Source: a virus (Duplodnaviria > Heunggongvirae > Uroviricota > Caudoviricetes). From it: a stretch of 39,463 nt of DNA. Positions 9,218 to 19,288 of the stretch are shown here, in pieces (the first letter of the stretch is position 1; each line of letters begins with the position of its first letter). The position numbers and the translations under genes were made by a program. The notes under the pieces were generated by a model. The model saw only the letters and a program-made list of their open reading frames with translations. It was not told the DNA's origin and searched no databases. The stretch is taken from IMG/VR virus record IMGVR_UViG_2531839129_000021, one strand, 5' to 3'.

Positions 9218-9267
9218 TTTTAAACGGAAAATAGTTTGTTTTTTGGTTATTGAGATTGAGGTGGGGA

Positions 9268-10620
<1,353 letters not shown>

Positions 10621-10628
10621 GACATTCC

Positions 10629-10660
10629 CGCTCTTACCCATCCCCGCCCTGAAAAAGGGC
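10629..10660 (+). promoter_or_regulatory. nutR: nutR (boxA CGCTCTTA, boxB GCCCTGAAAAAGGGC)
   Basis: Exact lambda nutR boxA at 10629-10636 and boxB at 10646-10660. Confidence 0.8.
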
Positions 10661-10739
10661 ATCTAATTAAACCACACCTATGGTGTATGCATTTATTTGC
10701 ATACATTCAATCAATTGTTATCTAAGGAAATACTTACAT

Positions 10740-11033
10740 ATGGTTCGTGCAAACAAACGCAACGAGGCTCTACGAATCGAGAGTGCGTTGCTTAACAAAA
10801 TCGCAATGCTTGGAACTGAGAAGACAGCGGAAGCTGTGGGAGTTGATAAGTCGCAGATCAGCAGGTGGAAGAGGGACTGGATTCCAAAGTTCTCAATGCT
10901 GCTTGCTGTTCTTGAATGGGGTGTCGTTGACGACGACATGGCTCGATTGGCACGACAAGTTGCTGCGATTCTCACCAATAAAAAACGCCCGGCGGCAACC
11001 GAGCGTTCTGAACAAATCCAGATGGAGTTCTGA
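10740..11033 (+). CDS. cII: CII transcriptional activator
   Basis: 97-aa ORF MVRANKRNEALRIESALLNKIAMLGTEKTAEAVGVDKSQISRWKRDWIPKF... recognised as lambda CII. Confidence 0.9.
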   Translation: MVRANKRNEALRIESALLNKIAMLGTEKTAEAVGVDKSQISRWKRDWIPKFSMLLAVLEWGVVDDDMARLARQVAAILTNKKRPAATERSEQIQMEF

Positions 11034-11056
11034 GGTCATTACTGGATCAATCTACA
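10979..11056 (-). ncRNA. oop: OOP antisense RNA (overlaps the 3' end of cII)
   Basis: Minus strand reads ...GATCCAGTAATGACCTCAGAACTCCATCTGGATTTGTTCAGAACGCTCGGTTGCCGCCGGGCGTTTTTTATT, matching lambda OOP RNA with its terminator; ends approximate. Confidence 0.55.
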
Positions 11057-11065
11057 GGAGTCATT

Positions 11066-11965
11066 ATGACAAATACAGCAAAAATACTCAACTTCTGCAG
11101 AGGTAACTTTGCCAAACAGGAGCGTAATGTGGCAGATCTCGATGATGGTTACGCCAGACTATCAAATATGCTGCTTGAGGCTTATTCAGGCGCAGATCTG
11201 ACCAAGCGACAGTTTAAAGTGCTGCTTGCCATTCTGCGTAAAACCTATGGGTGGAATAAACCAATGGACAGAATCACCGATTCTCAACTTAGCGAGATTA
11301 CAAAGTTACCTGTCAAACGGTGCAATGAAGCCAAGTTAGAACTCGTCAGAATGAATATTATCAAGCAGCAAGGCGGCATGTTTGGACCAAATAAAAACAT
11401 CTCAGAATGGTGTATCCCTCAAAACGAGGGAAAATCCCCTAAAACGAGGGATAAAACATCCCTCAAATTGGGGGATTGCTATCCCTCAAAACAGGGGGAC
11501 ACAAAAGACACCATTACAAAAGAAAAAAGAAAAGATTATTCGTCCGAGAATTCTGGCGAATCCTCTGACCAGCCAGAAAACGATCTTTCTGTGGTTAAAC
11601 CGGATGCTGCAATTCAGAGCGGCAGCAAGTGGGGGACAGCAGAAGACCTGACCGCCGCAGAGTGGATGTTTGACATGGTAAAGACTATCGCACCATCAGC
11701 CAGAAAACCGAATTTTGCTGGGTGGGCTAACGATATCCGCCTGATGCGTGAACGTGACGGACGTAACCATCGCGACATGTGTGTACTGTTCCGCTGGGCA
11801 TGCCAGGACAACTTCTGGTCCGGTAACGTGCTTAGCCCGGCCAAACTCCGCGACAAGTGGACCCAGCTCGAAATCAACCGTAACAAGCAACAGGCAGCCG
11901 TGACAGCCAGCAAACCAAAACTCGACTTGACAAACACAGACTGGATTTACGGGGTGGATCTATGA
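11066..11965 (+). CDS. O: Replication initiator O
   Basis: 299-aa ORF recognised as lambda O; contains the ori iterons. Confidence 0.95.
   Translation: MTNTAKILNFCRGNFAKQERNVADLDDGYARLSNMLLEAYSGADLTKRQFKVLLAILRKTYGWNKPMDRITDSQLSEITKLPVKRCNEAKLELVRMNIIKQQGGMFGPNKNISEWCIPQNEGKSPKTRDKTSLKLGDCYPSKQGDTKDTITKEKRKDYSSENSGESSDQPENDLSVVKPDAAIQSGSKWGTAEDLTAAEWMFDMVKTIAPSARKPNFAGWANDIRLMRERDGRNHRDMCVLFRWACQDNFWSGNVLSPAKLRDKWTQLEINRNKQQAAVTASKPKLDLTNTDWIYGVDL
11413..11499. repeat. Lambda-type replication origin: four ~18-20-bp iterons (ATCCCTCAAAACGAGGGA-like), followed by an AT-rich region to ~11545
   Basis: Four tandem direct repeats visible inside O; poly-A/T tract immediately downstream. Confidence 0.85.
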
Positions 11966-12663
11966 AAAACATCGCCGCACAGATGGTTAACTTTGACCGT
12001 GAGCAGATGCGTCGGATCGCCAACAACATGCCGGAACAGTACGACGAAAAGCCTCAGGTACAGCAGGTAGCGCAGATCATCAACGGTGTGTTCAGCCAGT
12101 TACTGGCAACTTTCCCGGCGAGCCTGGCTAACCGTGACCAGAACGAACTGAACGAAATCCGCCGCCAGTGGGTTCTGGCTTTCCGGGAAAACGGGATCAC
12201 CACAATGGAACAGGTTAACGCAGGAATGCGCGTAGCCCGTCGGCAGAATCGACCATTTCTGCCATCACCCGGGCAGTTTGTTGCATGGTGCCGGGAAGAA
12301 GCATCCGTTATCGCCGGATTGCCAAACGTCAGCGAGCTGGTTGATATGGTTTACGAGTATTGCCGGAAGCGAGGCCTGTATCCGGATGCGGAGTCTTATC
12401 CGTGGAAATCAAACGCGCACTACTGGCTGGTTACCAACCTGTATCAGAACATGCGGGCCAATGCGCTTACTGATGCGGAATTACGCCGTAAGGCCGCAGA
12501 TGAGCTTGTCCATATGACTGCGAGAATTAACCGTGGTGAGGCGATCCCTGAACCAGTAAAACAACTTCCTGTCATGGGCGGTAGACCTCTAAATCGTGCA
12601 CAGGCTCTGGCGAAGATCGCAGAAATCAAAGCTAAGTTCGGACTGAAAGGAGCAAGTGTATGA
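11962..12663 (+). CDS. P: Replication protein P (DnaB helicase loader)
   Basis: 233-aa ORF recognised as lambda P; ATGA-type coupling with ren. Confidence 0.95.
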   Translation: MKNIAAQMVNFDREQMRRIANNMPEQYDEKPQVQQVAQIINGVFSQLLATFPASLANRDQNELNEIRRQWVLAFRENGITTMEQVNAGMRVARRQNRPFLPSPGQFVAWCREEASVIAGLPNVSELVDMVYEYCRKRGLYPDAESYPWKSNAHYWLVTNLYQNMRANALTDAELRRKAADELVHMTARINRGEAIPEPVKQLPVMGGRPLNRAQALAKIAEIKAKFGLKGASV

Positions 12664-12950
12664 CGGGCAAAGAGGCAATTATTCATTACCTGGGGACGCA
12701 TAATAGCTTCTGTGCGCCGGACGTTGCCGCGCTAACAGGCGCAACAGTAACCAGCATAAATCAGGCCGCGGCTAAAATGGCACGGGCAGGTCTTCTGGTT
12801 ATCGAAGGTAAGGTCTGGCGAACGGTGTATTACCGGTTTGCTACCAAGGAAGAACGGGAAGGAAAGATGAGCACGAACCTGATTTTTAAGGAGTGTCGCC
12901 AGAGTGCCGCGATGAAACGGGTATTGGCGGTATATGGAGTTAAAAGATGA
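12660..12950 (+). CDS. ren: Ren (protects against Rex exclusion)
   Basis: 96-aa ORF MTGKEAIIHYLGTHNSFCAPDVAALTGATVTSINQAAAKMARAGLLVIEGK... recognised as lambda Ren. Confidence 0.85.
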   Translation: MTGKEAIIHYLGTHNSFCAPDVAALTGATVTSINQAAAKMARAGLLVIEGKVWRTVYYRFATKEEREGKMSTNLIFKECRQSAAMKRVLAVYGVKR

Positions 12951-12975
12951 CCATCTACATCACTGAGCTAATAAC

Positions 12976-13007
12976 AGGCCTGCTGGTAATCGCAGGCCTT
13001 TTTATTT
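12976..13007 (+). terminator. Putative rho-independent terminator (tR2-like)
   Basis: 8-bp stem AGGCCTGC/GCAGGCCT, 8-nt loop, then TTTTATTT. Confidence 0.5.
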
Positions 13008-13023
13008 GGGGGAGAGGGAAGTC

Positions 13024-13464
13024 ATGAAAAAACTAACCTTTGAAATTCGATCTCCAGCACATCAGCAAAACGCTATTCACGCGGTACAGCAAATTCTTCC
13101 AGACCCAACCAAACCAATCGTAGTAACCATTCAGGAACGCAACCGCAGCTTAGACCAGAATCGAAAGCTTTGGGCTTGCCTTGGTGACGTCTCTCGTCAG
13201 GTTGAATGGCATGGTCGCTGGCTGGATGCAGAAAGCTGGAAGTGTGTGTTTACCGCAGCATTAAAGCAGCAGGATGTTGTTCCTAACCTTGCCGGGAATG
13301 GATTTGTGGTAATAGGCCAGTCAACCAGCAGGATGCGTGTAAGCGAATTTGCGGAGCTATTAGAGCTTATACAGGCATTCGGTACAGAGCGTGGCGTTAA
13401 GTGGTCAGACGAAGCGCGACTGGCTCTGGAATGGAAAGCGCGATGGGGAGACAGGGCGGCATGA
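13024..13464 (+). CDS. ninB: NinB (Orf recombination mediator)
   Basis: 146-aa [59 protein letters not shown]...; ATG at 13024 with GGGGGAGAGGG RBS (the track start at 13006 is TTG). Confidence 0.85.
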
Positions 13465-13643
13465 GACGACAGCGACGAAGTTTCACCGACATCATCTGCG
13501 AAAACTGCAAATACCTTCCAACGAAACGCTCCAGAAATAAACGCAAGCCAATCCCAAAAGAATCTGACGTAAAAACCTTCAACTACACGGCTCACCTGTG
13601 GGATATCCGGTGGCTAAGACATCGTGCGAGGAAAACAAGGTGA
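13461..13643 (+). CDS. ninE: NinE
   Basis: 60-aa [67 protein letters not shown] overlap with the ninB stop. Confidence 0.8.
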
Positions 13644-13810
13644 TTGACCAAAATCGAAGTTACGAACAAGAAAGCGTCGAGCGAGCTTTAACGTGCGCTA
13701 ACTGCGGTCAGAAGCTGCATGTGCTGGAAGTTCACGTGTGTGAGCACTGCTGCGCAGAGCTGATGAGCGATTCGAATAGCTCGATGCACGAGGAAGAAGA
13801 TGATGGCTAA
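13640..13810 (+). CDS. ninF: NinF
   Basis: 56-aa ORF from GTG (13640) overlapping the ninE stop: (M)[55 protein letters not shown]. Confidence 0.7.
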
Positions 13811-14414
13811 ACCAGCGCGAAGACGATGTAAAAACGATGAATGTCGGGAATGGTTTCACCCTGCATTCGCTAATCAGTGGTGGTGCTCTCCAGAGTGTGG
13901 AACCAAGATAGCACTCGAACGACGAAGCAAAGAACGCGAAAAAGCGGAAAAGGTAGCAGAGAAGAAACGACGACGAGAGGAGCAGAAACAGAAAGATAAA
14001 CTTAAGATTCGAAAACTCGCCTTAAAGCCCCGCAGTTACTGGATTAAACAAGCCCAACAAGCCGTAAACGCCTTCATCAGAGAAAGAGACCGCGACTTAC
14101 CATGTATCTCGTGCGGAACGCTCACGTCTGCTCAGTGGGATGCCGGGCATTACCGGACAACTGCTGCGGCGCCTCAACTCCGATTTGATGAACGCAATAT
14201 TCACAAGCAATGCGTGGTATGCAACCAACATAAAAGCGGAAATCTCGTTCCGTATCGCGTCGAACTGATTAACCGCATCGGGCAGGAAGCAGTAGACGAA
14301 ATCGAATCAAACCATAACCGCCATCGCTGGACTGTCGAAGAGTGCAGGGCCATCAAGGCGGAGTATCAACAGAAACTTAAAAAACTGCGAAACAGCAGAA
14401 GTGAGGCTGCATGA
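13800..14414 (+). CDS. ninG: NinG (Rap; Holliday-junction/branched-DNA endonuclease)
   Basis: 204-aa [37 protein letters not shown]... recognised as lambda NinG. Confidence 0.85.
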
Positions 14415-15082
14415 ATATCTACGAAAGAATTGATGGCAGCAAATACCGAAATATTTGGGTAGTTGGCGATCTGCACGGATGCTACACGAACCTGATGAAC
14501 AAACTGGATACGATTGGATTCGACAACAAAAAAGACCTGCTTATCTCGGTGGGCGATTTGGTTGATCGTGGTGCAGAGAACGTTGAATGCCTGGAATTAA
14601 TCACATTCCCCTGGTTCAGAGCTGTACGTGGAAACCATGAGCACATGATGATTGATGGCTTATCAGAGCGTGGAAACGTTAATCACTGGCTGCTTAATGG
14701 CGGTGTCTGGTTCTTCAATCTCGATTACGACAAAGAGATTCTGGCTAAAGCTCTTGCCCATAAAGCAGAAGAACTTCCGTTAATCATCGAACTGGTGAGC
14801 AAAGATAAAAAATATGTCATTTGCCACGCCGATTATCCTTGTAACGAATACGAATTTGGAAAGCCAGTTGATCCTCAGCAGGTAATCTGGAACCGCGAAC
14901 GAATCGGCAACTCACAAGACGGGATCGTGAAAGAAATTAAAGGCGCGGACACGTTCATCTTTGGTCATACGCCAGCAGTGAAACCACTCAAATTTGCCAA
15001 CCAGATGTATATCGATACTGGGGCAGTGTTCTGCGGAAATCTCACATTGATTCAGGTACAGGGAGAAGGCGCGTGGGCATAA
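14411..15082 (+). CDS. ninI: NinI, Ser/Thr protein phosphatase (metallophosphoesterase)
   Basis: 223-aa ORF with GDLHG, GDLVDRG and GNHE metallophosphatase motifs; ATGA overlap with ninG. Confidence 0.85.
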
Positions 15083-15561
15083 GAGAACTAAACCTCACCA
15101 AAGAACAGCATGAGTGGCTGAATGGCTGGCTTGAACTGTGGGGCGCATGGGTTTATTCAGGTCGTCTGGAAAAGCGCATGAGCAGCGTAATAGCGAAGTT
15201 CATGGAGAGCGTAGAGCCGGGAAGAGTTATGACAAGGCCAATGTGTAATGATGATGATGGAATGTTGATTTCTCAGGTCGTCGATTCCGTCATGTACATT
15301 GACAAGAAAGCCTTTGGCATCCTCCTCAGCTACTACGCCCACGGCTCTTCCAAGCACGCCATTGCATCTTACTATCATCGCGTCGCAAGACCTCGCAAGA
15401 TGTTATGCCGGGGCGGCGGGCGCATTCAAAAACCATCGCTCGCAACCTGTCGACGGGAAGTTGACGAAATCCTCAATGCCTCGTTGTTTATGATTTACCC
15501 GGTTCTGGATAGTGCGTTTAAAAACCGGAAACGTGTAGAGAAAATTAAACATGTAGCATAG
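15073..15561 (+). CDS. Q: Late-gene antiterminator Q, non-lambda type (probably Q21/Q82-like)
   Basis: 162-aa ORF (GTG start with GGGAGAAGG RBS) between the nin genes and the lysis cassette; no similarity to lambda Q but contains an ELWGAWV segment resembling other Q families; assignment rests mainly on position. Confidence 0.55.
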
Positions 15562-15565
15562 AACG

Positions 15566-15650
15566 TGTTGACATCATTGAGCAAATGAGCAACACTATTC
15601 GCATAAGCTGCCGTTAGTGACTCTTAAGTTGCAACGGTGGCTTTTTTTAT
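15566..15650 (+). promoter_or_regulatory. Candidate late promoter pR'/qut region with tR'-like terminator
   Basis: TTGACA at 15568-15573 immediately after Q; weak -10; short stem (CCGTT/AACGG) followed by a T7 run at 15642-15648. Confidence 0.3.
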
Positions 15651-15652
15651 TT

Positions 15653-15727
15653 GGGTCAGTCGTATAAAGGTCATTACGGAAGGCTGTTAACCTTCTTATC
15701 GTGGTTCGAGTCCACGCTGTCCCGCCA
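15653..15727 (+). tRNA. tRNA-like gene, anticodon GTT (Asn) by hand folding
   Basis: 75 nt: acceptor GGGTCAG/CTGTCCC (one mismatch), anticodon stem GAAGG/CCTTC, loop CTGTTAA, T-arm CGTGG-TTCGAGT-CCACG, encoded GCCA 3' end. Confidence 0.5.
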
Positions 15728-15732
15728 AATAT

Positions 15733-15808
15733 GCTGGTTTAGCTCCAATGGTAGAGCGGTCGCCTTGTAAGCGAATGGGTAGCGGTTCAAGTCCGTTAAC
15801 CAGCACCA
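15733..15808 (+). tRNA. tRNA-like gene, anticodon TGT (Thr) by hand folding
   Basis: 76 nt: perfect 7-bp acceptor GCTGGTT/AACCAGC, D-arm GCTC-CAATGGTA-GAGC, anticodon loop CTTGTAA, T-loop TTCAAGT, encoded ACCA 3' end. Confidence 0.55.
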
Positions 15809-15926
15809 TAACTGAGCCGTAGCCACTGGATGTCCTGAATTCATCAGTGATAGTTATGCTGCGGTCTTCTTTTTCTCCCTTCCCAATATAAGAACTACGC
15901 AATCCGTTACTGGCGGAGGCGTTGCT

Positions 15927-16142
15927 ATGAAATCAATGGACAAAATCTCAACTGGCATTGCCTACGGAACATCCGCTGGTAGTGCGGGATACTGGTTTTT
16001 GCAGTGGTTGGATCAGGTCAGTCCATCACAGTGGGCTGCGATTGGGATGCTTGGAAGCCTTGTGTTGGGCTTTCTCACCTATCTGACAAATCTGTACTTC
16101 AAAATCAGAGAAGACAGAAGAAAGGCTGCGAGAGGTGAATAA
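15927..16142 (+). CDS. S: Pinholin S21 type with dual start (antiholin from 15927, holin from 15936)
   Basis: 71-aa [74 protein letters not shown] recognised as phage 21 S; two transmembrane segments; Met-Lys-Ser-Met dual-start motif. Confidence 0.85.
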
Positions 16143-16639
16143 TGCCTCCATCATTACGAAAAGCCGTTGCTGCGGCTATTGGTGGCGGGGCTATTGCTAT
16201 AGCATCTGTGTTAATCACTGGCCCAAGTGGTAACGATGGTCTGGAAGGCGTCAGCTACATACCATATAAAGATATCGTTGGTGTATGGACTGTATGTTAC
16301 GGGCATACCGGAAAAGACATTATGCTCGGTAAAACGTATACCAAAGCAGAATGCAAAGCCCTCCTGAATAAAGACCTTGCCACTGTCGCCAGACAAATTA
16401 ACCCGTACATCAAAGTCGATATACCGGAAACAACGCGCGGCGCTCTTTACTCGTTCGTTTACAACGTTGGTGCTGGAAATTTCAGAACATCGACGCTTCT
16501 TCGCAAAATAAACCAGGGCGATATCAAAGGCGCATGTGATCAGCTACGGCGCTGGACATACGCTGGCGGTAAGCAATGGAAAGGTCTCATGACTCGTCGT
16601 GAGATTGAGCGTGAAGTCTGTTTATGGGGGAAGCAATGA
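16142..16639 (+). CDS. R: SAR endolysin (lysozyme with N-terminal signal-anchor-release domain), R21 type
   Basis: 165-aa ORF with Gly/Ala-rich hydrophobic N-terminus ([18 protein letters not shown]) followed by a lysozyme-like domain; immediately follows the pinholin. Confidence 0.85.
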
Positions 16640-17170: not shown

Positions 17171-17290
17171 AAGACTATTTTGCTGCCATGAAGAAGCTTT
17201 ATATCTTTGGTCAATACATCGAACAGATCAGATAATTCTTATGTGATTGATGCTATATTTATCCCCTATTTAAACATGGGAGTTACGGAT

Positions 17291-18091
17291 ATGTCTGTCA
17301 GTCAAGATATTTATAAGTCTACACTTAGAGTTGAAAGTGATACTCCAGAGGGAACCTCGGTAGGAACTGCTTTCTGGTTTTGCTTTGTTATGGAAGGTGG
17401 TGAAGATATTGTTCCACTCTTGGTAACTAATAAGCATGTTGTTAACGGGGCAACAGAAGTTAGACTACGTCTAAACATTACCGACAGCGCAAATCCTGAG
17501 ATAAAATTTTATAACCTAACAATTTCAGAGGGGGCAAATGCGTTCATTATGCACCCTGATGATAATGTTGATATATGCATATTGCCTATCGCTGGATTGC
17601 TGAATGAGATGGAGAAAAGTGGCATTAGCCCAGAACTCTTCTTTTTCACAGATCGTCAGATGCGTGGTAACAATTACATTACTCCTGTCGAAGATGTTTA
17701 CATGACAGGATATCCAAATGGATTATGGGATTCTGTAAACAATAGGCCTGTTACCAGGAAAGGCATCACAGCATCATCACCTATGGAAAACTGGAAGGGT
17801 AAGCCTGAATTCCTCATTGATATGGCTTGTTTCGGTGGTTCTAGCGGTTCTCCCGTTTATATAATGAACCAAGGCTCATATGCTACTAATGATGGTATTG
17901 CTATGGGGGAGAGATTAATTTTCCTTGGGTTGTTGTATGCAGGGCCAGTAACGAATGTTAGCGGGAATATTGAAATTATTGACGTACCAACAGTCGCTAC
18001 ACCAGTTGTGCGTTCTGAAATTACAATGAATCTCGGATTTGTTATTAAAGCAGAGAAGCTAAATGACTTTAAGCCTCTCTTGGGGATTTAA
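17291..18091 (+). CDS. Trypsin-like (chymotrypsin-fold) serine protease, cytoplasmic; moron of unknown role
   Basis: 266-aa ORF from ATG 17291 with GGGAG RBS; motifs in catalytic order: His (LVTNKHVV), Asp (HPDDNVDICIL), Ser (GGSSGSPVY); no signal peptide; AT-rich. Confidence 0.6.
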   Translation: MSVSQDIYKSTLRVESDTPEGTSVGTAFWFCFVMEGGEDIVPLLVTNKHVVNGATEVRLRLNITDSANPEIKFYNLTISEGANAFIMHPDDNVDICILPIAGLLNEMEKSGISPELFFFTDRQMRGNNYITPVEDVYMTGYPNGLWDSVNNRPVTRKGITASSPMENWKGKPEFLIDMACFGGSSGSPVYIMNQGSYATNDGIAMGERLIFLGLLYAGPVTNVSGNIEIIDVPTVATPVVRSEITMNLGFVIKAEKLNDFKPLLGI

Positions 18092-18224
18092 CACAAGCCG
18101 CCTCCGGACGGTTTTTTTATTGCTATTACAAAAGCCACTCCATGCCGAGTGGCTTTGATAATGGCTTATACCCTACACGGGATAACTTAACTGATATCCC
18201 AACAAGCGGATAAAGAGGTTCTCA

Positions 18225-18350
18225 ATGTCCGACATCTACCAAATCATGTTAACCACCCAAACAGGCGAAACCTTTACGGGTAAGATGTCACGACGTCAGC
18301 GTGAGCTGGTTAATGGCTTTATGCAGCCGGCTACCGAGATGGGCGAGTAG
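18225..18350 (+). CDS. Hypothetical micro-protein (41 aa)
   Basis: ATG ORF MSDIYQIMLTTQTGETFTGKMSRRQRELVNGFMQPATEMGE preceded by an AAGAGG RBS; no homology recognised. Confidence 0.25.
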   Translation: MSDIYQIMLTTQTGETFTGKMSRRQRELVNGFMQPATEMGE

Positions 18351-18439
18351 AATAACTCCATTAGGAGAATGTGGAACCATTACACTTTGAGCCGTTAACT
18401 GATATTGATAAAGGTAAATAATATCGTGGTTAAGGCTTT

Positions 18440-18712
18440 CTAATAGCCAGCCATTTGCAAAATCACAGTTGCAGCAGCAGCGAAAGCTGCATATGAGTTA
18501 TATTTAGACTGTAACCGCGCAGTTAAGAAAAATTCGTGAAGATCTACATTTTTTTGGGGATCATCAAATGTAATTGCTACAACGGTGCTTCTACCTGTTT
18601 TGACTTTGGCTGTTGCTGATTTGATCCATAACCCAGCCGATAAAAAACCAAAGAAAATTGATAGTGTATGATGGTCAATTAACCAGTTTTTAATTAGTAA
18701 TAAATCACTCAT
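18440..18712 (-). CDS. Hypothetical small membrane protein (90 aa)
   Basis: ATG start at 18712; one hydrophobic helix (LSIFFGFLSAGLWI); AT-rich; occupies the slot where lambda carries bor, but is not Bor-like. Confidence 0.35.
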   Translation of the reverse strand: MSDLLLIKNWLIDHHTLSIFFGFLSAGLWIKSATAKVKTGRSTVVAITFDDPQKNVDLHEFFLTARLQSKYNSYAAFAAAATVILQMAGY

Positions 18713-18736
18713 TTTCAATCCAATTGAGACTTTGCC

Positions 18737-19288
18737 ATGGCACTCACCGACAAACAAGAAATGTTCTGTCGCGAGTACCTCATCGATTTAAACGCCACAC
18801 AAGCGGCTATTCGGGCGGGGTACAGCGCAAAGACAGCCAACCGTACTGCGTCCGAAAACATGTCAAAACCTGACATCAAGTTAAGAATCGCTGAACTGAA
18901 AGCGCAACGCAATGATCTTGTTGGTATTAATGCAGAATATGTACTTAATCGCCTTCTTGAAATCGACCAGATGGATGTGCTTGACATTCTCCTGCAAAAC
19001 GGTGAGCTAAAACCCATTAAAGACTGGCCTAAGGTATGGCGCACAACGCTATCAGGAATGGATGTCGTGGAGATGGTATCCGCAGATAGCGCCGCACTTC
19101 TGAAGAAAATCAAATGGCCTGATAAGGTTAAAAATCTTGAGTTGCTTGGGCGTCATGTTTCTGTTCAGGCGTTTAAAGACAATGTCAAAAATGAAGTGAC
19201 TGGCGCTGATGGAGGACCAGTCAGAACAGAAATTACCAACTTAACGCCGGAGCAGGCTGCAGAGGCGTATAGAAAAATGATGGGCTAA
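18737..19288 (+). CDS. Terminase small subunit
   Basis: 183-aa [37 protein letters not shown]..., the characteristic N-terminus of small terminase subunits; directly upstream of the large subunit. Confidence 0.7.

Follow-up and report, generated by a model that had tools for sequence, protein, structure and literature searches.

A tandem of tRNA-Asn and tRNA-Thr genes is a recorded feature of the late-operon leaders of lambdoid and P22-like phages. It has been annotated in phage 21 (OL657228, CPT_21_64 and CPT_21_65; the second gene is known as tRNA-Thr21), and the description of Shigella phage SfI notes the pair also in Sf6, ST64T, PS3, and phage 21 (PMC3636060). Here we describe the corresponding locus in the IMG/VR virus record IMGVR_UViG_2531839129_000021 (Duplodnaviria; Heunggongvirae; Uroviricota; Caudoviricetes), a stretch of 39,463 nucleotides that was analyzed over its whole length and is referred to below as the window. 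Its two tRNA genes, at 15653..15727 and 15733..15808, constitute a phage-21-type tRNA cassette, an element that is already known, annotated, and partly characterized. The overall account that we consider likely is that of a late-leader cassette dependent on the Q antiterminator, whose tRNA-Thr replaces a host tRNA cleaved by the nuclease OLD.

The functional part of this account builds on work on P2-OLD, the effector of P2–lambda interference, which kills by cutting the anticodon stem of the one tRNA-Thr(UGU) of the host (Govande et al., NAR 2025, PMC12445682). The cuts fall 3′ of the C in paired CNG motifs at nucleotides 28–30 and 40–42 (PMC12445682). OLD is activated when a phage Gam protein inhibits RecBCD. 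Phage tRNA-Thr(UGU) genes rescue OLD toxicity, and tRNA-Thr21 both protects and resists cleavage, a resistance that requires alteration of the CNG motifs (C28U/G42A in Thr21) as well as a shortened anticodon stem (PMC12445682). Rescue by the plasmid-expressed Thr alleles of phage 21 and HK446 depends on the anticodon; added host thrU gives no protection from OLD, whereas the phage alleles protect. For HK97 and HK542, the HK446 allele is a strong counter-defence (bioRxiv 10.64898/2026.07.10.737580).

The same logic, in which a phage tRNA that the nuclease cannot cut stands in for the severed host one and so counters OLD or PARIS, has been proposed for the tRNA-Thr(UGU) of T4, T5, Bas32, and Bas33. 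These share the anticodon with the window gene but belong to the large tRNA arrays of lytic phages, which include a resistant tRNA-Lys(UUU), whereas the window has two tRNAs and belongs to a temperate phage, in which Q antitermination would govern them. In Stx phages such as 933W, the genes ileZ-argN-argO occupy the same niche downstream of pR′/tR′ and upstream of the lysis genes, with Q on one side and stx/S on the other. Their identities (rare Ile and Arg codons) are different and their sequences unrelated, and they are usually read as a codon supply for stx and the late genes.

Exactly two tRNA genes are called by ARAGORN in the whole window, both on the + strand. The upstream gene is a tRNA-Asn of 75 nt (15653..15727) with anticodon GUU, discriminator G73, and an encoded CCA; the downstream gene is a tRNA-Thr of 76 nt (15733..15808) with anticodon UGU, G1-C72, C2-G71, A73, and an encoded CCA. 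Between them lies a spacer of 5 nt, AATAT (15728..15732, + strand), the length of which is kept in almost all of about 120 related loci. Against the Rfam family RF00005 the two genes score 55.3 bits (Asn) and 61.2 bits (Thr), with a gathering score of 29; the corresponding E-values over the whole window, 2e-9 and 5e-11, rule out chance for both matches. A first-pass annotation of this DNA, made by hand folding, had proposed two tRNA genes at these same coordinates with anticodons GTT and TGT. ARAGORN returns the same boundaries and the calls tRNA-Asn(gtt) and tRNA-Thr(tgt), and the anticodon loops (CTGTTAA in Asn, CTTGTAA in Thr), the T loops (TTCGAGT and TTCAAGT), and the encoded CCA ends that the first-pass annotation described can all be read in the sequence.

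Both tRNAs have U33, A37, the D-loop GG, a TTCGA or TTCAA T loop, and the Levitt pair A15·U48, but C9 is found in tRNA-Asn and C14, instead of the usual A14, in tRNA-Thr. Acceptor and D-stem mismatches had been noticed earlier in the first tRNA, and they are real (U4·U69 and U13·U22, respectively); the G27·A43 mismatch atop the anticodon stem of tRNA-Thr had been overlooked, as had its C14. In E. coli, asparaginyl-tRNA synthetase identifies its substrate by the anticodon G34 U35 U36 and G73, and threonyl-tRNA synthetase by G1-C72, C2-G71, G35, and U36. The window tRNA-Asn has the loop CUGUUAA, with its GUU, and a G before CCA, and the window tRNA-Thr has all four of the Thr elements.

The window tRNA-Thr has the UGU anticodon needed to stand in for host thrU at ACA codons and both published features of OLD resistance, the loss of the paired CNG and a shortened stem (4/5 pairs). 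Its anticodon arm, GUCGC/CUUGUAA/GCGAA, is the same as that of Thr21; the stem GUCGC/GCGAA carries U28/A42 and the G27·A43 mismatch and has a CNG motif on neither strand. In the stem of host thrU, ACUGA/UCAGU, nucleotides 28–30/40–42 are CUG/CAG, and the UCG/CGA of the window amounts to the C28U/G42A change. The window also encodes a lambda-type Gam (6371–6667, − strand; PF06064, 215 bits), adjoined by Bet/RecT at 5580–6365 and Exo/YqaJ at 4903–5583. One genome therefore combines Gam, the canonical trigger of OLD, with a tRNA-Thr predicted to resist it. The best-supported function of the tRNA-Thr is thus replacement of the OLD-cleaved host tRNA, such that ACA stays readable, which has been shown for the near-identical alleles of phage 21 and HK446 and would be expected to extend to the window copy.

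The cassette lies between a phage-21-type Q antiterminator gene (15073..15561, + strand; PF06530 Phage_antitermQ, 87 bits; collinear with phage 21 CPT_21_63, "antiterminator") and the first late protein gene, encoding an S21 pinholin/antiholin of class II (15927..16142, + strand; PF04971 "Bacteriophage P21 holin S", 119.5 bits, in agreement with the phage 21 annotation), which is followed by a lysozyme gene at 16142–16639. Leader coordinates were carried over from phage 21 (OL657228), to which the window aligns here without gaps or mismatches at an offset of 14039, the leader comprising pR′, the Q-binding element (QBE), the pause element, and tR′ being base for base the same as the experimentally mapped phage 21 leader. 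By this transfer, the late promoter pR′ (15568..15596, + strand) has its −35 hexamer TTGACA at 15568–15573, the QBE ATTGAGCAAATGAGCA at 15576–15591, and its −10 element at 15591–15596, and the late leader (15603..15652, + strand) has its transcription start at 15603, a sigma-dependent pause element at 15604–15610, and the terminator tR′, a hairpin followed by UUUUUUUAUUU, at 15605–15652. Promoter, QBE, pause element, and intrinsic terminator, as assigned from sequence, thus all lie in the interval separating Q from the first late gene. For the tR′ hairpin, the folding energy is −20.2 kcal/mol (z = −6.1), and none of 200 shuffles folds equally well. A simple promoter and terminator scan of 15000–16300 detected neither pR′ nor tR′, its criteria excluding a tR′ stem of this length and so weak a −10, and the same scan, which missed pR′ too, detected no separate promoter for the tRNAs. 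The first base of tRNA-Asn is the base directly after tR′. The first-pass annotation had located the pair between the Q antiterminator and the holin and downstream of pR′, and it is so placed, directly behind tR′ in the late leader, as annotated in phage 21, Sf6, and SfI. Because the tRNAs sit directly after tR′ and the leader is the same as the mapped one of phage 21, we infer that they are expressed together with the late genes.

From this arrangement a sequence of events may be proposed. In the quiescent prophage, pR′ transcription would halt at tR′ without Q, and little or no tRNA would be made. Upon induction, Q would load on RNA polymerase at the QBE and the pause site, allowing readthrough of tR′, so that the late transcript would begin with the tRNAs, and the host RNase P and 3′ nucleases would excise them; with CCA encoded, none would need to be added. 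OLD, triggered by Gam inhibition of RecBCD, would cut the host tRNA-Thr(UGU), and the poorly cut phage copy would replace it and keep ACA readable in late expression. A general rise in ACA and Asn decoding capacity would probably accompany this replacement.

Over 15540–15930, the locus shares 99.7% identity with SfI and 97.7% with coliphage 21. The order in phage 21 is alike throughout, from the pR′-QBE-tR′ leader through Asn, a 5-nt spacer, and Thr to the S21 holin; its tRNA-Asn is identical at 75/75 and its tRNA-Thr at 75/76 positions, including the entire anticodon arm. The differences are A26 in tRNA-Thr, where the window and SfI have G26 (outside the anticodon arm), one spacer base, and, in the window, a lambda/434-like early arm and a NinI-type phosphatase before Q. 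A core of 267 bp (about 15604–15870) is 96–98% identical in Sf6, BTP1, SPN9CC, and many other P22-like and lambdoid phages, and a cassette of 267 bp (or 228 bp) is shared at 96–99.7% identity by SfI, Sf6, BTP1, SPN9CC, other P22-like phages, HK446, mEp506, and Kapi1. The cassette matches 92 phage records, the annotated ones among which, BTP1 included, list tRNA-Asn and tRNA-Thr "similar to phage 21", and it is found in more than 120 IMG/VR contigs. Of 5426 complete E. coli genomes, 369 (about 7%) carry the pair, and gene order is the same throughout all three collections. It occurs behind Q genes of the phage 21 type (window, SfI, 21), the P22 gp23 type (Sf6, L), and the lambda type (HK446), and before different holins, those of Sf6 and HK446 being lambda S-like, unlike that of the window. 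The cassette thus behaves as a small mobile unit in the lambdoid late-operon leader.

The IMG/VR search pattern demanded both anticodon loops, so that co-occurrence of Asn and Thr in these contigs arises by construction and was not used as evidence. The notion that the two genes always travel together and hence form a kit was dropped on this ground, the independent cases (phage L, ST64T, and P1) being mixed. Phage L and ST64T retain tRNA-Asn, but in place of Thr they have a Thr-like gene with a scrambled sequence, "Leu(UAA)". In phage L (MW013502, 781–852 of our locus L130) the acceptor, D, and T arms of this 72-nt "tRNA-Leu(TAA)" align to the phage 21 tRNA-Thr and the anticodon arm is broken by indels. 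With an Rfam score of just 42 bits, next to an Asn gene that is 100% conserved, it gives the impression of a Thr gene copy that has decayed or been retargeted. Phage P1 has a tandem, trnA (Asn)–trnT (Thr), with the same anticodons in the same order and only 2 nt between the genes; P1 too is temperate, the operon is a lytic one under repressor control, and its Thr is about 80% identical to that of the window. It differs in its ban operon context, in a Thr that keeps CNG/CNG and the full 5-bp anticodon stem, and in an Asn that keeps UAAUCA; by the published rules, both members of this C1-repressed Asn–Thr(UGU) tandem (NC_005856, 2423–2576 of locus L129) would be sensitive to OLD/AriB. HK446 (JQ086372, 611–766 of locus L007) has both tRNA-Asn and tRNA-Thr, neither of them annotated in its GenBank record, and is described in the 2026 OLD preprint as encoding a single Thr(UGU) tRNA.

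Conservation was assessed in 124 copies (37 haplotypes) gathered from IMG/VR with the pattern spanning both anticodon loops, of which 28 haplotypes were aligned and underlie the counts that follow; positions 29–41 of Asn and 31–39 of Thr were fixed by the pattern, and invariance there is uninformative. Standard pairs occupy 92.5% of cells across the two cloverleaves. Changes on both sides were found in 19 of 42 stem pairs, as compared with at most 5 in slid controls, and none of 500 column shuffles reached any of the five measures used. Compensatory changes occur in all four helices of Asn and in three of the four of Thr (all but the D stem), as exemplified by Thr G5-C68 to U-A or A-U, Thr U3-A70 to C-G, Asn A6-U67 to G-C, and Asn A28-U42 to C-G. 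The mismatches are themselves conserved states (Asn U4·U69 in 25/28, Asn U13·U22 in 27/28, and Thr G27·A43 in 26/28 haplotypes). G73 of Asn is kept in 27/28, the first two acceptor pairs of Thr are invariant in 28/28, and position 14 of tRNA-Thr is T14 in a few. Selection acts on both cloverleaves.

These observations bear directly on whether tRNA-Asn, or both genes, might be a decaying pseudogene or a hitch-hiking relic without function. The first-pass annotation had suspected the first tRNA of being degenerate, and a case can be made from the U·U mismatches in its acceptor and D stems, from C14 in tRNA-Thr, and from RF00005 scores 12–17 bits below those of the host isoacceptors (55.3 and 61.2 bits vs. 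72.6 for asnT and 73.8 for thrU). The minimum-free-energy folds from ViennaRNA are likewise non-cloverleaf or barely more stable than those of shuffled sequences (z = −1.7 and −1.5); single-sequence folding was dropped as uninformative for tRNAs, and the covariance model and covariation were used in its place. The phage scores are nevertheless inside the range of bona fide E. coli tRNAs (53–75 bits among those tested, with glyT at 64.9 and tyrU at 53.4), and the identical pair in E. coli chromosomes is annotated by NCBI PGAP as intact tRNAs with no pseudogene flag. The tRNA-Asn sequence recurs at 100% identity in phages 21, Sf6, SfI, HK446, and L, despite differing flanking genes, and the Thr allele has been shown experimentally to decode ACA. 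Because the mismatches are conserved in 25–27 of 28 haplotypes and not scattered, the stems covary, the scores (55.3 bits for Asn) fall in the range of real tRNAs, and the synthetase identity elements are present, the suspicion of degeneracy was not borne out, and a functionless relic is very improbable. We hold in equally low regard the idea that the tRNAs compensate for a host tRNA gene broken by prophage integration, or are attachment-site remnants. Many temperate phages do integrate into tRNA genes; SfI integrates into thrW (PMC3636060), and an explanation of this kind has been suggested for HK446 (bioRxiv 10.64898/2026.07.10.737580). The cassette, however, lies in the late leader about 13 kb from the integrase (1419–2489), and the tR′ terminator would block its expression in the lysogen, the very state in which compensation is needed; thrW, moreover, has a different anticodon (CGU) and is rebuilt upon integration. 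The early arm of the window, including int, is lambda-like, and lambda attB is not known to be a tRNA gene. The same cassette is also found in phages with different integration modules.

A more serious contender is pure codon supplementation, the classical view, in which the tRNAs only raise the decoding of ACA and AAC/AAU and have no tie to host nucleases. The first-pass annotation had pointed to codon usage relative to the host as a check, and the comparison (greedy ATG open reading frames in the window vs. 43 annotated E. coli K-12 genes, per thousand codons) gives a mixed answer. ACA is 2.4-fold enriched (14.1 vs. 5.9; odds ratio 2.4, p = 3e-11) and the Asn codons AAC and AAT about 1.45-fold (49 vs. 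34; odds ratio 1.46, p = 4e-9). K-12 itself has a single UGU tRNA gene, thrU. The SfI authors found the same ACA bias (17.3 vs. 7.1) but saw none for the codons of the Asn tRNA (PMC3636060), and the phage L authors report that 24/25 Asn codons of the capsid gene are AAC (PMC8022706). AGG (5.2 vs. 0.6) and AGA (8.5 vs. 1.1), each enriched about 8-fold, CGA (8.0 vs. 2.9; 2.7-fold), and ATA (8.6 vs. 3.3; 2.6-fold), however, all outrank ACA with no cognate phage tRNA in the window, and ACA is no higher in late genes (13.8) than in early ones (14.6), though the tRNAs would be made only late. Supplementation is therefore compatible with the data and probably contributes, but it is non-specific. As the sole explanation it would leave unaccounted for the two exact changes in the Thr anticodon arm that OLD resistance requires, the conserved, destabilizing G27·A43, and the failure against OLD of extra host thrU where phage alleles succeed; it remains a credible minority view that we would not favor.

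The tRNA-Asn is harder to place. The SfI authors call its significance "not clear" (PMC3636060), and no function for a phage tRNA-Asn is reported in the papers that we examined. Published targets of the OLD-family tRNases include both Thr(UGU) and Asn(GUU): host tRNA-Asn(GUU) is a secondary target of OLD and PARIS and was among the tRNAs compared with thrU in OLD cleavage kinetics, in which thrU was cut fastest. Host asnT has paired CNG motifs (CGG/CCG), where the window Asn has AAG/CUU and no CNG. The determinants of AriB have been mapped to U39, N41, and U16 of the host target (Burman 2024; Belukhina 2025). At these sites the window Thr reads UAAGCG with A16, vs. UAAUCA and U16 in the host, and the window Asn reads UAACCU with A16, vs. 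UAAUCC and U16. Most likely, tRNA-Asn adds to the host pool of tRNA-Asn(GUU), which the OLD nuclease family cuts as a secondary substrate, or takes its place. More speculatively, and at odds that we regard as rather poor, tRNA-Asn might complete a minimal counter-defence kit of two tRNAs in temperate lambdoid and P22-like phages, directed against the OLD-family ABC-ATPase/TOPRIM tRNases (OLD, PARIS-like) of P2 prophages and P4 satellites; the targeting of host tRNA-Asn and the altered CNG and AriB sites of the window Asn are leads in its favor. Escape from B185 PARIS needs a resistant tRNA-Lys(UUU), and none was found in the window by ARAGORN or in about 120 related loci, which counts against a counter-defence role for Asn; the pair was therefore not classed as an anti-PARIS set.

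Several further observations weigh against replacement of nuclease-cleaved host tRNAs as the purpose of the cassette. A single viral Thr(UGU) rescued neither lambda itself nor OLD toxicity in recB cells (bioRxiv 10.64898/2026.07.10.737580); the phage of the window is itself lambda-like and encodes Gam, so its tRNA-Thr may protect it only in part. The authors of the same preprint prefer a "temperate lifestyle" explanation for the HK446 tRNA, as HK446 also has a protein inhibitor (bioRxiv 10.64898/2026.07.10.737580). The expression and processing steps proposed above for the window copies are deduced from their position and sequence, and the phage L paper expressly leaves undecided whether late mRNA is cut to release such tRNAs (PMC8022706). 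As for tRNA-Asn, 5/28 haplotypes have C28-G42 in place of A28-U42, which restores CNG/CNG, so that avoidance of CNG by the phage tRNA-Asn, though true of the window allele, gives weak support to a counter-defence role; the P1 Asn–Thr tandem retains its nuclease-sensitive motifs.

Downstream of tRNA-Thr, the 3′ end of the mobile cassette is formed by a conserved, imperfect hairpin (15814–15868) followed by a U-rich run (15814..15879 in all, + strand; fold −19.8 kcal/mol). Identity across 123 loci is 0.77–0.95 up to about 15868 and falls below 0.5 thereafter. A terminator is annotated at the hairpin position in phage L, and canonical intrinsic terminators occupy the same spot in four divergent relatives (loci L032, L034, L055, and L120). 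Sequence changes in the hairpin are mostly one-sided, and convincing covariation was not found in it. A permissive Rfam scan of 15540–15930 gave no match besides the two tRNAs, and the hairpin therefore matches no described RNA family; it resembles a terminator or 3′-end element. Two IMG/VR loci have a third gene, tRNA-Arg(UCU), 5 nt after tRNA-Thr (L069, 987–1063; L077, 1575–1651). AGA is the second most over-represented codon of the window relative to E. coli, after AGG.

Elsewhere in the window, the early arm is lambda/434-like (97–98% identity over 1331–15072), and this fits with the presence, at 6974–7032 on the − strand, of a sequence that scores 88.5 bits with the Rfam model of the lambda cIII thermoregulator element (RF01804). 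A mosaic joint is apparent at 15072/15073, where lambda similarity stops at the start of Q and phage-21/SfI-type sequence begins; before Q, the window has a NinI-like metallophosphatase (14411–15082), and phage 21 and SfI have a NinH fragment there. Two further open reading frames, one for a trypsin-like serine peptidase (PF13365; 17207–18091, +) and a small one on the opposite strand (18440–18757, −), lie between the lysis genes and the open reading frame at 18737–19288, a putative small terminase gene by position. The region 17207–18757 looks like a moron or cargo position.

The finding itself adds nothing new, insofar as the genes have been annotated and described and the tRNA-Thr has been functionally tested in near-identical alleles. 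A prophage that combines Gam with a tRNA-Thr predicted to resist OLD nonetheless illustrates how, in nature, temperate phages may use a replacement tRNA for counter-defence. If the tRNA-Asn should indeed prove to be the second half of a kit, this kit would be released only upon Q antitermination, at the time when late proteins must be made while host tRNAs are being cut.

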